Origin: a virus
Direction: 5' to 3' (one strand)
Virus record (IMG/VR): IMGVR_UViG_3300013383_000248
Length of the DNA: 64,000 nt
Positions 1 to 64,000 of this stretch are shown here, piece by piece. How positions within the stretch are numbered: position 1 is the first letter of the stretch; the number at the start of each line of letters is the position of its first letter. The position numbers and the translations under genes are program-made. The notes beneath the pieces are model-generated. The model searched no databases. It was given only the letters and a program-made list of their open reading frames with translations, and had not been told where the DNA came from.

Positions 1-287
1 AAAAATCTGGCATTTCTACAACAAATAAATCTGCTTTACAAAGATATTGTGCTGCTTCCCTTACTCGCGACAATTCATCCCCAACATATTTACCATTCAA
101 AATATGGTCTTCATTTACGCTAGATAGGAAAGCCAACATCATAGTTTGGATTTCATCTTTAGTCTGTTCAGTAGAAATAAATAAAACAGGTTCTCCGCCC
201 CCACCGGACTTAATCCATCCAATTCCTTCTTGGTAATATTTTTCACAAGAAAGATAACAAGCATCAGCAATCATACTACGAGACTTC
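1..287 (-). CDS. Replicative DnaB-family helicase, exon 2 (C-terminal RecA-like domain; runs off the window start)
   Basis: The minus-strand translation KSRSMIADACYLSCEKYYQEGIGWIKSGGGGEPVLFISTEQTKDEIQTMMLAFLSSV... matches the DnaB H1a/H2 region (the FSLEM...Q...R..S..S pattern). It joins exon 1 so that a Walker A motif AATGVGKS is formed. Confidence 0.6.
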
Positions 288-1396
288 AGTTTTGTTATCC
301 TATGGGCTTTTTATCCCATAGTTCTTATGGTTTCCCATAAGCTCAGCATATCTTTTCATCTTCACCTTTAAGTGTTAAGAGTAGGGGCCTCGTGGATGGA
401 TTATATCTTTTCACCATCTATGCGTTGTGGCTGGTTATAGTTCCTATAACCTTCACCTCTGATTACCTTGCTTAATAAATTAAGTTTAGGCTTCCAGATT
501 TTTTCCCCTATAATTATCCTTAAAATTTCTTTTAAGGACGGCAATTTTTTAAAACAATATATTTTTCATATTTTCTATCTAAATATATAGAAGCATTTAA
601 ATATAACTAATCTAAATAATCAAATACATAATTTCCACTCCACTCAATAGCATAAGCATTAGAAGGATGCTAAATTTTACATTGGCGCCATTGAGTTCTT
701 TGTAGTAATTCTTCAATAAATTCTTTAGTGCTTAATAATGATAGTCTTGGCTTATTATAAATCCCTTTATGATTTTTTCCAATCATAATACTACCATCAC
801 CATCAATATACCCTCTTATAAAATCAAATAAAAATTTATCTGAGACTTGTTCTTTAGTAGGAAATATTAATGTCAATGATTTTTTAGGAGTACAACCTAA
901 GTTAATTAAACTTTGTCTTAGATGTTTATTACTTACCTAAATTCTACATCTAATATCATCCTAAAAAATATGTTTGTCTTTAGAAAATCCTAAGTTATCT
1001 CGAAATTTTTCTAAATGCTTAATATCAGAAGATTTTAAACTTAATTCTACAGTATTATTATTACTGCTAATAGCTCCATCAGCATATAAAAATCCTAGCC
1101 AATAAGCTTTATCTGGATTATCGATTACGTCAAAATAATTTTCATTGAATTTAGTTATATTTTGTTTATTAATAATTTCAATACCTTCGGCTTTAAAATT
1201 ATTACTTAATGTTCCTCTATCCAAATGTAATTCTTTACTAATCTAAGCAAGACTTTTACCTTCTTCAAGATACATTCTTTTTGCTTCTTTATATTTTTCT
1301 TTATATATATTAGATTGTCCCATATCATTTAAGGACCTCCTTTTTAATATATATAAATTTTTAATTATATGAATTCAACAGAATTGTCCGTAAATT
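288..1396 (-). mobile_element. Group I intron inserted within the Walker A codons of the DnaB helicase gene; carries a LAGLIDADG homing endonuclease
   Basis: The exon 1 reading frame reaches a stop a few codons past the proposed 5' splice site (after U of GGU). An S-element-like AAGAUAUAAUCC and two perfect P9-like hairpins (about 296-345) lie at the 3' end. The last intron nucleotide is G, and exon 2 restores GVGKS. Confidence 0.55.
670..1323 (-). CDS. LAGLIDADG homing endonuclease (double motif); 3 in-frame TAG codons
   Basis: The motifs WLGFLYADGA and YIDGDGS are present. Reading TAG as Gln joins track ORFs 961..1224 and 670..876 with an N-terminal HTH (MGQSNIYKEKYKEAKRMYLEEGKSLAQISKEL...). 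Confidence 0.7.
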
Positions 1397-2080
1397 ACCT
1401 ACACCAGTTGCCGCAGACCGCAAATAAAATTTATTCAATCTTGCTCCACGAGTAACTGTATTAATCAATGGACCAAATAAAGGAGCACCAACTTCAGGAT
1501 GTTCCAAAAGGTCATCAATTAATTCATCAATATTATTGCCAGCTTGGTATGCATCATTTTCCATTTCTGCTACATATTGATATTTAATTTCTTCAATTTT
1601 ATCATCAATACGTTGAGCAATTTTTTCTAATGAAGCATTATCTAACCATTCTTCTTGGAGTTGACGTTTTTTAGTATCTAAAATATTATCAGGGTCATAA
1701 ATATCGCTTACATCAAAACCATACCTATCATACGCTCGAAGTAATGACATCTTTTTTAGACGTCCATAATAATAATCAAAAGTAGTATTATCACTATGAA
1801 GGCTAGCTTCTTTAATCCATTTGTCACCTTTTTGTGCAACATAGATAGCTTGATATTTTGGTCGAGTGCTTAAAAAATCTCCAATTGCATCTAATGTAAT
1901 GCTTTCGGCGCCAAGTTCATGTAGTTTATATATTGAACCATATACTATTTTATGAAAATCATTATCAAAATCATCTTCAGTAATAACATATTTATCAGTA
2001 TAATCCAATAGCTTAGGATTATTATATACGCAACCGATTGTCTAGATAATGGCTGTTGTATCAATATATTTTGATGCCAT
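1397..2080 (-). CDS. Replicative DnaB-family helicase, exon 1 (N-terminal domain through the first half of Walker A)
   Basis: An RBS GGAGGAC precedes the ATG at about 2080. The N-terminus MASKYIDTTAIIQTIGCVYNNPKLL has one TAG (Gln). The frame continues as ...RSAATGVG and then enters the intron. Confidence 0.6.
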
Positions 2081-2608
2081 TAGTCCTCCTTATCATCCAA
2101 GAAAGAAAACAGATGTTTTTTATAAGGCTTAGGTTTAGGGCGTGGTATCACAATTTCTGTTTCTTTTGGAACATAATTTTCAACTGTTTTATTTGTATTT
2201 TTTTGTTGAGCTAACCAAATAGCATAGTAATAGTTAAATGCTTGCTTATAGACCCAGGGTACTATACCAATACCATCATTTGATTTCTCTACTGGATTTT
2301 GTTTTACTTCATAAAAATAAACTAAAGATTTTAAAATTCCACTATAAGTAAAATTATATTCTTTAATATAATTTTTAATTTGTTTTTGAATACGAGGGTC
2401 TACATAATCAGTATGAAATAATTGATTAATATACTAATCTAATTTCATTTTATCTAAATCCTCTTTACTCATAACTTCTTCTTTGCGTTCAGCACACTCT
2501 GGATGGGCATAACGCTTGGAACTTACTTGAACAAAAGGCTACTTATCTCTATCAAAAGTTTTTCCACAATATAAACATTTTACGTTATGTGCTATTGGTT
2601 CTCACCAC
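2080..2608 (-). CDS. Zinc-ribbon protein (CxxC...HPEC); start codon uncertain; 2 TAG codons
   Basis: The frame reads ...CLYCGKTFDRDKQPFVQVSSKRYAHPECAERKEE...PRPKPKPYKKHLFSFLDDKED*. Its stop overlaps the DnaB start (TAATG). No in-frame ATG, GTG or TTG follows the upstream TGA. Confidence 0.35.
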
Positions 2609-2621
2609 CAAACATTATAAT

Positions 2622-2660
2622 TTCTATATATATTATATCAAAAAATAGATAAAAAATCAA
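2622..2660 (-). promoter_or_regulatory. Conserved phage promoter motif (minus strand: TTGATT, a 17 nt spacer, then TATAAT)
   Basis: This is one instance of the recurrent plus-strand motif cTATATATATTATAT...AAATTTTCAAAT, seen about 15 times in the window. Confidence 0.45.
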
Positions 2661-2680
2661 CCCAGAGTTTCCTCTGGGTT
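2659..2680 (-). terminator. Rho-independent terminator after the Sak4-like gene
   Basis: A hairpin aacccagag-ttt-cctctgggtt is followed by a T-run on the minus strand. Confidence 0.5.
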
Positions 2681-2685
2681 AATAA

Positions 2686-61978: not shown

Positions 61979-62046
61979 TAAATATCTTTCTCAATCATCT
62001 ATTTTCAAAAGAGTAAAGATTATAAATAAGTTATCAATTTCAAACT

Positions 62047-62868
62047 TATTCTGTCCATTTACGCCATGTGATTTTAGCACCGGCGTCTTGTGCTTTTATA
62101 ACTCCATCTTTTATTGTAATTGTTTTACCATCAATTTTTACACCACCAAGTGTTTCTGTAGTTGCTACTGGTAATGTATATAAATCTGGAATAGCACTTT
62201 TTTCAGCATATTTACTTAAATCAGGCTTGTTGTTTAAATCATTATAATCATTAGATACAGCGACAGCACCTAATGTCTCAATTAAAGTTAAATAATACTA
62301 ATCACTTTTAATTTCATCAGGCTATGGTTTATTAATAACATTGTTCCATTCAACAGCGTCTGCCACAACGCCTTCACCAGTTGCTATTAATGTACCGGTA
62401 GCACTAATTTTAAGGCCTTGGCCCACTTTAACTATACCAAATTGTTCTGTAGTAGCTTTTGGTAATTTATCACTCGTGGTTTGTTGATTAACATATTCTT
62501 TCGCATCAGATAACGCTTTATTACTAAAATTTTGAGCAGCTTTGACAGCTCCTTTAATTGTATTAGATGCTTCAGTATCATTATCAGTGCCAATTAAAGT
62601 ATTTTTAATTTCTTCACTACGAGTATCTAATTGGCCTAAAGTAATAAAATTAGTAGGTATATCAGTTTTTTTAGCATAGATAGTTAAATCAGGAGTATTA
62701 CTCAGACTATTATAATCTCCGTTAAAAATATCTTCTTTATAAGCTATACCGCCTTCATGCTTTACTTTTAAAATTAATTCTTCTAACTCTTGAACGGTAA
62801 GCTAAACTACATATCGATCTTCTAGACCCGGCATTTTTAAAGATTTTAATTGTTTATCTTCCAATGAG
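62047..62868 (-). CDS. Tail-fibre-like protein (T4 fibre-like beta-repeat ...LGGVKIDGKTITI...); TTG start; 3 TAG
   Basis: An RBS GGGAGG precedes MEDKQLKSLKMPGLEDRYVV(Q)LTVQ... Confidence 0.35.
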
Positions 62869-62912
62869 AGTATCCTCCCTTCAATGTTTCTATTCTAAAA
62901 TTATATAAAAAA

Positions 62913-62950
62913 TAAAAGCGTTGAACTAAACTAATTAGTCCAACGCTTTT
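62913..62950 (-). terminator. Hairpin terminator
   Basis: aaaagcgttgaactaaactaattagtccaacgctttt. Confidence 0.45.
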
Positions 62951-62952
62951 AC

Positions 62953-63276
62953 TTAATTTATTTTAGAATATAATTCTTTAACTAACTTTTCTAATTCGTC
63001 AATACGATTATTTAAATCTTCTTTTTCTTGAATCTAAGTAGTTAATTTATCATATTCTTCCTTATCTATTTCTACTATCTATACACTTAATTTTTCATCA
63101 TTAAATGTATTTTTAGTACCGAGAATATGATAAATAGTGTCTCCTCCCGAAGACACTATCCCATTAGCTTGCATTTTATCTACAGCTATTAATTTCTAAG
63201 ATTTAGGAAGACACTTTACATATCGTATATCTTCCATTACATCAATAATTTGATTATTATGTAATATTTTATACAT
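62953..63276 (-). CDS. Small coiled-coil protein (about 107 aa); 3 TAG
   Basis: An RBS AAGGAGG precedes MYKILHNNQIIDVMEDIRYVKCLPKS(Q)KLIAVDKMQANGIV... Confidence 0.3.
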
Positions 63277-63288
63277 TATTTGTCCTCC

Positions 63289-64000
63289 TTAAATACAAAT
63301 TAGAATAACAACTTGGTTTGCGCTACCGCCACCAATTGAAGTCATATAACCTTGCATATCAATGCCGCACCACGAATGTACTTCCTTATGAGCGGAACGA
63401 GTCCAATATACATTAGGAGGAGTAATTATACGGCTATAATTATCAGTAAACATTACATAAGGTGTACCCTAACCAGCAGTTGTTGCACTATTAGCAATTC
63501 CTAACTCAATTAAGGAAGGAATAGCTACTTTATCATAAGTAGTAATTAAACCACTCTAAATAGGAGCATAGCCAGGATCGCTTAAACGCTTAATTGATTT
63601 AATATTTTTCTTTAATTCATCAGGGAGAGCGTTTAAGAAATTATCATTCAACCAAGAGCGTAAATCACACATTTCCCAGCCGCCTACATTAAGTGCGCTA
63701 TCCTATCCATTATCTTTTGGAGAACGGTTCAAAGCACGAGATAATGATAAAACTACTTTAAATGTTAATCCAGCAGTAGTAGAATTATTGTTATACCCTA
63801 CACTAGTAGTTTCTAATTCATCGTGATTCTTACCTATGATTTCAAATTCAGCTTCATCAGTATAGGTTTTACCATAGTTTACATAAGTGATAGTCTATTT
63901 CTTTTTGCCGCCATAACCATAATCACTTAGATTACCGGCTGCAACATTCGCCGCGATAGTAGTCCAGCTATCTTCAATATATCCATTAAATACATACTGT
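63289..64000 (-). CDS. Hypothetical structural protein, C-terminal part (N-terminus beyond the window end); several TAG
   Basis: The frame ends ...ANQVVILICI*. No family assignment is made. Confidence 0.25.

Follow-up and report, generated by a model that had tools for sequence, protein, structure and literature searches.

The window considered here, 64,000 nucleotides (nt) of the IMG/VR virus record IMGVR_UViG_3300013383_000248 analysed at full length, is part of a large TAG-recoded phage, in which some gene classes are free of in-frame TAG codons and others are dense in them. With a probability of roughly 0.6, we favour the reading that a set of genes compatible with the standard code would be translated by the naive host, while the TAG-containing genes would wait for, or be throttled by, the supply of a phage-encoded suppressor tRNA with anticodon CUA, tRNA(CUA).

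The window has a GC content of 30%, with nearly all genes on the minus strand. Genes were re-called with TAA and TGA as the only stops (code 15), using first-ATG models and splicing five split genes by hand; automatic start-site refinement was dropped because it shortened several genes (g46, g49), and the re-called genes were annotated with Pfam and PHROGs. Non-overlapping open reading frames (ORFs) covered 0.84 of the window under code 15 compared to 0.45 under code 11, and 18 of the 49 code-11 ORFs ended in TAG. In codon alignments with six close relatives, TAG was most often paired with CAA (70) and CAG (20), followed by GAG, GAA, and AAA at approximately 11 to 15 each, counts that are not phylogenetically independent. 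Judged from these alignments, TAG is glutamine in this phage. Codon 144 of g36 (23222-23671), a TAA stop in each of the six relatives, is TAG in the window, leaving a 5-codon read-through tail, which points to a former stop turned read-through. The last TAG of g42 (28404-28937) lies 9 codons ahead of TAA and may still serve as a stop before suppression sets in.

The initial annotation had claimed that TAG codons are partitioned between gene classes, and the re-called genes bore this out. The density after re-calling in table 15 was non-uniform, both before curation of the gene set (186 TAG in 18,180 codons; chi-square 161.7, 71 degrees of freedom, p = 5e-9) and after it (184 in 18,105 codons; chi-square 160.7, p = 1e-9). 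Rates per 1000 codons rose from 0.3 in the block of flotillin, phosphatase, kinase, NADAR, MVP, DUF2828, and SLH genes to 2.9 in replication and nucleotide-metabolism genes, 12.1 in lysis genes, 14.0 in homing endonucleases, 14.1 in fibre-like proteins, and 18.3 in the radical-SAM/Cys-rich cluster. Nine of the 33 genes of at least 240 codons lacked TAG when 1.1 were expected, a number reached in 0 of 100,000 simulations. Off-frame TAG trinucleotides are abundant in the TAG-free genes (38 in topoisomerase II A, 17 in MVP), so the depletion is a reading-frame effect. In TAG-containing genes, TAG makes up 36% of glutamine codons; by simple arithmetic, a zero at that rate would arise by chance with a probability of about 1e-4 in either topoisomerase subunit and of about 1e-6 in MVP.

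The TAG-free genes fall largely into two blocks. Block I (9063-16871, minus strand; Pfam) comprises ligase (9063-10172), g17, topoisomerase II A (10538-12919; 793 codons), topoisomerase II B (spliced from 14317-15812 and 12861-13263; 632 codons), RNase H (15805-16281), and a DUF5662 gene. It contains 0 TAG in approximately 2,250 codons with 60 glutamine codons, a mobile intron being its only interruption, and it is equally free of TAG in all six close relatives and in the more distant relative L007. An apparent TAG in 'g20' proved to be out of frame and was discarded, the spliced topoisomerase II B being free of TAG. The T4 genes for topoisomerase, ligase, RNase H, and RNA repair belong to the early or middle class.

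Block II (26479-37725, minus strand; Pfam) runs from flotillin through an SLH protein and contains flotillin (flotillin/SPFH; 26479-27861), a metallophosphatase, an AAA_33 kinase, a second metallophosphatase, NADAR, g45, major vault protein (MVP; 30762-33233, 823 codons), g47, g48, a DUF2828/DUF7788 gene (exons 33775-35052 and 36201-36446), and the SLH protein. This gene class has a single TAG in 3,059 codons. The MVP assignment is solid on the basis of its match to solved major vault proteins (E = 1.4e-20); no PHROG family was found for MVP or flotillin. The zeroes listed by the initial annotation for both topoisomerase II subunits, ligase, RNase H, MVP, and flotillin all stood on the re-called and spliced genes. 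Its zero for the phosphatase/NADAR block held for both metallophosphatases and NADAR (27874-28419 and 29211-30409) but failed for the kinase g42 among them, the sole TAG-bearing enzyme gene of block II with 1-2 TAG; the other exception inside the block is g48, a small fibre-N-like ORF with 3. For its 'Ro60-like' gene the zero count was confirmed but the label was not, as Pfam gave only DUF2828/DUF7788 and the solved Ro60 showed no sequence match to the protein. Judging from their families, the phosphatases, kinase, NADAR, and DUF2828 protein look like RNA/nucleotide repair or counter-defence functions. Orthologs of block II are TAG-free in the relatives L008-L013 and L036-L038.

Comparison with relatives indicates that the zeroes are maintained. 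The TAG-free genes have 0 TAG in six plus five close relatives, while counts in other genes fluctuate (window versus relatives: AAA_24, 3 versus 1-2; g13, 6 versus 8-9; g37, 5 versus 0-3). Among variable glutamine-codon columns, TAG was involved in 4 of 80 in TAG-free genes compared to 52 of 113 in TAG-containing genes (Fisher p = 7e-11). Two of those four columns belong to second exons of TAG-containing genes, one to g71, which has two glutamine codons, and one to g41, which has TAG in one relative. The share of variable codon columns overall was 0.456 in TAG-free and 0.379 in TAG-containing genes. Ligase is approximately 82% identical to its orthologs and still TAG-free, and MVP and the DUF2828 gene lack TAG in another four lineages, where identity is 65-67%. 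From these patterns, the TAG-free state looks selected, that is, kept by purifying selection.

An outside view comes from L007 (IMGVR_UViG_3300045988_147563), a syntenic relative with 41-61% protein identity (41% for topoisomerase II A). In L007, TAG occurs at ORF ends only, coding density is 0.85 versus 0.86 under the two codes, and no tRNAs were found in the compared region, where the standard code appears to apply. Orthologs of both gene classes are present in L007, none with an in-frame TAG; recoding is thus derived, and block I is not a later import. L007 would also be a useful outgroup for dating the code change.

The tRNA and non-coding RNA cluster (41462-46379, minus strand; ARAGORN, Rfam) accounts for the six tRNA genes of the window, which read GGA, TTA, CAA, ACA, TAY, and TAG: tRNA-Gly(UCC) (41462-41535), tRNA-Leu(UAA) (41543-41628), tRNA-Tyr(GUA) (44346-44432), tRNA-Gln(UUG) (44437-44511), tRNA-Thr(UGU) (46306-46379), and the suppressor with anticodon CUA (42709-42783, minus strand; ARAGORN, and 46.5 bits to the Rfam tRNA model). 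The suppressor aligns with a G1-A72 mismatch and G73, does not closely resemble the phage tRNA-Gln(UUG), and occurs in the relative L011 as well. Between tRNA-Tyr/Gln and the suppressor lies a full-length ROOL RNA (43647-44236, minus strand; Rfam RF03087, 320 bits) with its own promoter at 44332. Two further segments are of interest in their own right, namely, approximately 730 nt of GC-rich, apparently non-coding DNA between ROOL and the suppressor-tRNA promoter (42919-43646) and a stretch of tRNA-like 3' halves, T-arm plus acceptor, between the PD-(D/E)XK_5 ORF and tRNA-Gln (44512-44853); neither matched an Rfam family at E <= 1. No HDV-like/theta ribozyme was found beside the suppressor tRNA with Rfam.

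A sigma-70-like promoter family links the suppressor to the TAG-free genes. Its consensus is TTGAAA-N17-TATAAT followed by ATATATAGAAA, with 18 matches versus 6.1 expected; when scored with a position weight matrix (PWM), the coding strand has 18 sites, against a single one on the opposite strand and none in shuffled sequence, and all but one of the sites are intergenic. A generic sigma-70 consensus scan was not enriched over shuffles. Promoters of this family head g52, DUF2828, g47-MVP, g45-NADAR-phosphatase, kinase-phosphatase-flotillin, and g27, as well as the g26-topoisomerase unit, ligase, g08-g05, and g04-helicase; the minus-strand sites of block I are at 17206 and 10226 and those of block II at 37830, 36545, 33459, 30732, and 29210. 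Every tRNA or ROOL unit is likewise headed by a family promoter (46448, 46201, 44581, 44332, and 42918, minus strand). That of the suppressor tRNA (42874-42918, minus strand) is an exact TTGAAA-N17-TATAAT with a PWM score of 35.8, 107 nt upstream of the tRNA. Strong intrinsic terminators follow SLH (g52), DUF2828 (g49), MVP (g46), and flotillin (g40). Read from its motif, the family fits host-polymerase-driven expression of the TAG-free units. The correlation of TAG content with promoters that the initial annotation had called for was found for nearly all TAG-free units, with two sites (53313 and 48485) falling outside it. A separate late promoter class of TATACT type was considered and set aside, there being too few intergenic sites (three, at 56915, 53292, and 23824, of which two lead to TAG-rich genes). 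Upstream of g72, a segment on the minus strand (57415-57543) combines a family promoter (57543-57499), an 11-nt poly-C tract within approximately 50 nt of it (57458-57468), and a 17-bp terminator hairpin (57451-57415); it might yield a short transcript, act as an attenuator, or be prone to slippage.

At the other end of the scale are the lysis, fibre-like, and radical-SAM genes. The lysis genes (17590-20364, minus strand) consist of a holin-like ORF with two transmembrane segments (17590-18048) and an amidase endolysin (Pfam Amidase_2; exons 20227-20364 and 18069-19208). There are 4 TAG in the holin-like ORF, one of them at codon 5, and 3 in the endolysin spliced from its two exons, in agreement with the 3-4 and 3 first counted. 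A holin identity is an inference from the transmembrane segments and adjacency alone. The fibre-like pair g53 and g54 (37834-41323, minus strand) matched no Pfam or PHROG family; g53 has 3 TAG, and g54 (38732-41323), an ORF of 863 aa, has 12, one short of the minimum of 13 given earlier for an 860-aa fibre. The fibre label comes from N- and C-terminal motifs that the pair shares with g72 and g77 and from an Mtd_N match in g77. PHROGs gave almost no functional categories, which leaves motifs or context as the grounds for the names 'tail fibre' and 'holin'. Further fibre-like or structural ORFs, g72-g81 (56933-63672, minus strand), have 1-8 TAG each and include Mtd_N, an ALK_LTK_GRD-like glycine-rich domain, and DUF6273.

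The TAG-richest cluster (46445-56122, minus strand; Pfam, PHROGs) has a GC content of 17-29% and 14-42 TAG per 1000 codons in most ORFs (about 5 in g63). It encodes radical SAM/SPASM-like proteins (g64, g65, g68), an aldo-keto reductase with an Fe-S domain (g62), a nucleotidyltransferase-like protein (g67), and proteins of no known type. Taken together, 46445-56887 and 23847-26309 (minus strand) hold at least four radical SAM/SPASM-like enzymes, a cluster noted also in L039 and L014. Cys-rich repeat proteins of the C-S-G-x-C type adjoin the cluster (g37, 23847-24758; g71, 56135-56887), an arrangement that may reflect enzymatic cross-linking of a Cys-rich phage protein.

The homing endonucleases are TAG-bearing even when their host genes are not. 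Five insertions of 1.0-1.3 kb, absent from L001, sit with clean boundaries inside conserved genes, namely, the helicase, a GIY-YIG-domain gene, topoisomerase II B, endolysin, and PIN-PhoH, and a sixth splits DUF2828 (287-1394, 6373-7597, 13264-14316, 19209-20224, 20834-22121, and ~35053-36200), which makes at least six mobile introns in 64 kb. Their ORFs are of LAGLIDADG or GIY-YIG type with 3-7 TAG each, while the exons of topoisomerase II B and DUF2828 have 0. On the minus strand these include a LAGLIDADG endonuclease (532-1323, 5 TAG; Pfam) in the 1,108-bp intron of the DnaB-like helicase, GIY-YIG endonucleases at 6536-7432 (7 TAG; Pfam), in the topoisomerase II B intron (13430-14140, 5 TAG; Pfam), and in the DUF2828/DUF7788 intron (35204-35944, 3 TAG), a second LAGLIDADG endonuclease (20872-21636, 3 TAG), and a GIY-YIG-type endonuclease in the endolysin intron. 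Two more endonucleases on this strand, a GIY-YIG (41731-42678, 1-2 TAG) and a PD-(D/E)XK_5 protein (44854-45657, 2 TAG), complete the set. The initial annotation was right that all contain TAG; the range is 1-7 rather than 2-8. Compared to L001, which has an uninterrupted gyrB-like ORF of 632 aa, the topoisomerase II B intron is an insertion of 1,053 bp; the spliced gyrB-like ORF of the window is open throughout its 632 aa, and in-frame stops exclude an intein. L003 has a different insertion in this gene. Conserved RNA-like segments flank the intron ORFs; an Rfam search of 1-23000 found no group I intron RNA at E <= 0.1, a model that the ORF insertions may break. The T4 intron endonuclease I-TevI is under late translational control, via promoter choice and mRNA structure. 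Likewise, the arrangement here would restrict an intron endonuclease while the host exon gene is expressed, although the restriction would come from a reassigned stop codon. Borges et al. (10.1101/2021.08.26.457843) described the same situation, a recoded intron endonuclease in an unrecoded gene, and read it as late restriction of the endonuclease.

In the mechanism that we favour, the TAG-free units of blocks I and II would be written for the unmodified host ribosome, with the host reading TAG as a stop. TAG-containing genes would be completed only after tRNA(CUA) had accumulated enough to outcompete release factor 1, their translation being limited by suppressor supply, and TAG would thus gate expression post-transcriptionally, delaying or throttling the production of lysis, fibre-like, radical-SAM-cluster, and homing-endonuclease proteins together with some replication proteins. 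TAG-free genes would be expressed first, 'early' and 'late' being used by analogy. The suppressor-dependent control proposed initially is partly supported by selection against TAG, the tRNA(CUA), codon covariation, and the promoter family, but its boundaries are not 'replication versus late'.

Several points weigh against this reading. Half of the replication genes carry TAG, the TAG-richest genes form the radical-SAM cluster, and the TAG-free topoisomerase unit has the holin and endolysin immediately upstream of it, an order that does not divide the genome into simple early and late halves. The suppressor tRNA shares the promoter type of the TAG-free genes and, going by that promoter, is not transcriptionally 'late'; any delay must then arise as the tRNA accumulates or competes with release factor 1. 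The family promoters at 53313 and 48485 precede TAG-rich radical-SAM genes, which leaves the association of promoter and TAG-free state strong, not perfect. Genes with 12 TAG would need near-complete suppression, and no additional machinery occurs in the window; Pfam found no release-factor or aminoacyl-tRNA synthetase code-switch gene in these 64 kb, although such genes could sit outside the window given related contigs of 105-190 kb. Short TAG-free ORFs (e.g., g71, g52, g25) have too few glutamine codons for a zero to be informative, and early expression of the TAG-free genes is argued by analogy.

The most serious alternative, to which we give clearly less weight, is that TAG reports expression level and not timing: if decoding of TAG were at all times less efficient than that of CAA or CAG, genes whose products are required in large or dependable amounts would purge it together with other poorly served codons. 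Codon usage bears directly on this. The TAG-free genes form two codon-usage classes, of which the first (MVP, flotillin, DUF2828, g45, SLH) is strongly optimised. Compared to TAG-containing genes, CAG makes up 96% versus 8% of its glutamine codons (30 CAG and 0 CAA in MVP), AAG 78% versus 13% of lysine codons, ATA 0% versus 29% of isoleucine codons, and TTA 4% versus 69% of leucine codons. This signature is kept in all distant lineages examined; MVP encodes all of its 27-31 glutamines with CAG and nearly all lysines with AAG, a usage that holds in each lineage down to 65% identity. In MVP, flotillin, DUF2828, and SLH, each of which is also followed by its own strong terminator, TTA, CAA, and TAG are nearly absent, and the use of GGA and ACA falls to less than half. 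Over all genes, TAG density tracks an index of A-ending codons from which glutamine is excluded (rho = 0.61, p = 5e-7), and two codon-optimised fibre-like proteins in L014 have TAG reduced to approximately 5 per 1000 codons. These observations speak for an expression-level account.

The same axis also supplies the evidence on the other side. The second TAG-free class (topoisomerase, ligase, RNase H, phosphatases, NADAR) has ordinary, intermediate codon usage with an A-ending index of 0.22-0.38, and the values for topoisomerase, ligase, and RNase H (0.28-0.38) overlap those of TAG-containing genes, yet these genes have 0 TAG; codon optimisation alone therefore does not explain the zeroes. Ligase and RNase H would not be expected among the most abundant products. 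Conversely, g05 and g07 are codon-optimised yet TAG-bearing, with conserved TAGs at codons 9 and 52, and the two optimised fibre-like proteins of L014 likewise retain some TAG. A search for the major capsid protein as an expression control, by walking upstream in a relative's contig, gave only fibre-like, radical-SAM, and endonuclease genes. Phage tRNA sets compensate the codon usage of late genes, and the tRNAs of the window likewise match codons enriched in one gene class: with the exception of the Tyr codons (TAY), the codons that they read are those that the first class avoids. TAG is the extreme of a general split between genes served by host tRNAs and genes leaning on phage tRNAs. The base after TAG (+4) shows a weak trend towards the suppression-friendly base (A, 47% versus 37%; T, 15% versus 23%; p = 0.02-0.06).

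A different account, which we regard as improbable, holds that TAG-free genes must work in a state where the suppressor is absent or silent, such as a carrier state, lysogeny, or under tRNA-removing defence. It is akin to a lysogeny switch, as suggested for recoded prophages. The repair or counter-defence appearance of block II would suit such a state, as would the TAG-free integrases that Borges et al. reported in recoded prophages; however, the Pfam search of the window turned up no integrase, repressor, or partition gene, core replication enzymes are among the TAG-free genes, and the related contigs of 105-190 kb look like those of a large virulent-type phage. Neutral history, that is, CAG-to-TAG drift with TAG-free genes as recent imports or very slowly evolving, draws on the GC of block II (0.39-0.41), its foreign-looking codon usage, and the missing PHROG families of MVP and flotillin, but is very improbable, with import recency and slow evolution largely refuted by the synteny of both classes in the standard-code L007, by persistence of the MVP/DUF2828 codon signature and TAG-free state at 65-67% identity, and by glutamine codons that turn over between CAA and CAG in equally divergent genes and never reach TAG, including the 73 CAG codons of the class we labelled A, each one transition from TAG and none of them TAG.

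The replication module outside block I (1361-8709, minus strand; Pfam/PHROG) is TAG-poor rather than TAG-free. TAG had been described as absent from replication genes, which is correct for topoisomerase II A and B, ligase, and RNase H but not for the DnaB-like helicase (1 TAG), g04 (1), AAA_24 (3), g07 (1), g09 (2), and PIN-PhoH (3). The TAGs of the module lie at codon 13 of helicase exon 1, codon 13 of g04, codons 9, 38, and 70 of AAA_24, codon 21 of g06, codon 52 of g07, codons 31 and 55 of g09, codon 36 of g10, and codon 20 of g14, with none in g08. All 15 fell in the first 40% of the ORF, or 14 of 15 after splicing of PhoH (Kolmogorov-Smirnov p = 5e-6), while CAA/CAG in the same genes had a mean relative position of 0.57. 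In genes with <10 TAG per 1000 codons, a criterion independent of function, the mean position was 0.31 for TAG and 0.54 for CAA/CAG (p = 8e-4), in an analysis that is exploratory, with gene grouping partly post hoc. Over all TAG-containing genes, TAG density was 18-28 per 1000 in codons 1-40 versus 12-15 later. The first TAG is conserved in 7 of 7 genomes in helicase (codon 13), g04 (13), AAA_24 (9), g07 (52), PhoH (26/56), and holin (5), and these conserved early codons fall within Pfam- or PHROG-aligned regions. A small ORF in distant lineages has TAG at codons 4 and 21.

A tentative extension, which we hold with distinctly less confidence than the gating itself, is a three-tier translational programme timed by the phage's own tRNA supply. 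The first tier would consist of TAG-free genes such as topoisomerase and ligase, its extreme class (MVP, flotillin, DUF2828) being also nearly free of A-ending codons read by phage tRNAs. The second would hold genes otherwise compatible with the standard code, some even codon-optimised, with one conserved 'gate' TAG within approximately 50 codons (helicase, AAA_24, g07, PIN-PhoH, holin), where failed read-through would cost a short peptide only. The third would have TAG spread throughout the gene. Placement of the gate near the 5' end would then be a designed feature of recoding; alternatively, the same bias could arise if gene starts in general favour slow or AT-rich codons.

As for the lineage itself, a megablast of 25 kb against GenBank phages returned tRNA-sized matches only, and the phage is therefore without an annotated close relative there. 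IMG/VR holds six related contigs of 105-188 kb at approximately 90% nucleotide identity and more distant relatives at 41-67% protein identity; taken from related contigs, the phage size would be roughly 105-190 kb. Ribosome-binding sites of the window genes are of the strong AGGAGG type, and such Shine-Dalgarno sites suggest a low-GC Gram-positive host. A scan of genome contigs for the host matched only metagenome-assembled genome (MAG) bins labelled Mollicutes, Eubacteriales, and Clostridium, which probably hold mis-binned phage contigs. One such MAG, 'uncultured Mollicutes bacterium', contains two MVP-carrying contigs, L035 and L038 (CAMELE010000010.1 and CAMELE010000001.1), at 95% and 67% identity, probably from two phages that low GC brought into one bin and not from the host.

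Stop-codon recoding has reportedly been described in crAss-like phages by Yutin et al. Firmicutes-associated gut phages of the phAss-1/'Phassvirus' group (Clostridia siphoviruses; PMC10607447) resemble the present phage in exceeding 100 kb, in carrying a tRNA-Sup(CUA), and in having TAG in signature genes; unlike it, they are described in PMC10607447 without mention of topoisomerase, vault protein, flotillin, or radical SAM, and we found no evidence of relatedness to them. The phages of Borges et al. (bioRxiv 10.1101/2021.08.26.457843) are the nearest parallel. That work reported biased recoding of structural and lysis genes with statistics relative to glutamine codons, close standard-code relatives, and a temporal model, so the partition phenomenon and the model are already published, and the partition alone is not new. 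The two systems share TAG as glutamine, an own suppressor tRNA, stops in structural and lysis genes and their absence from some replication machinery, a recoded intron endonuclease in an unrecoded gene, a close standard-code relative, and the same gating model. They differ in that the present lineage has no near relative among GenBank phages, its TAG-free set holds MVP, flotillin, phosphatase, NADAR, and DUF2828 genes with extreme codon optimisation, its TAG-richest genes are the radical-SAM cluster, and no release-factor or synthetase code-switch genes lie in the window.

The present analysis adds a direct turnover test for selection, shows that the avoided codons correspond to those read by the phage tRNAs, and describes the promoter family, the position of TAG near the 5' end of TAG-poor genes, and the unusual TAG-free set of MVP, flotillin, DUF2828, phosphatases, and NADAR; neither the 5' placement nor the promoter analysis was found in Borges et al. 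The phage thereby provides a well-resolved Firmicutes-type example of stop-codon recoding as a gene-expression switch. If the selection against TAG in defined transcription units, the matching codon avoidance, and the conserved 5'-proximal TAGs hold up, they would yield testable design rules for a virus that uses its own tRNAs as a timer, and they would allow early genes to be predicted in silico in uncultured recoded phages, here including a vault-protein/flotillin module.

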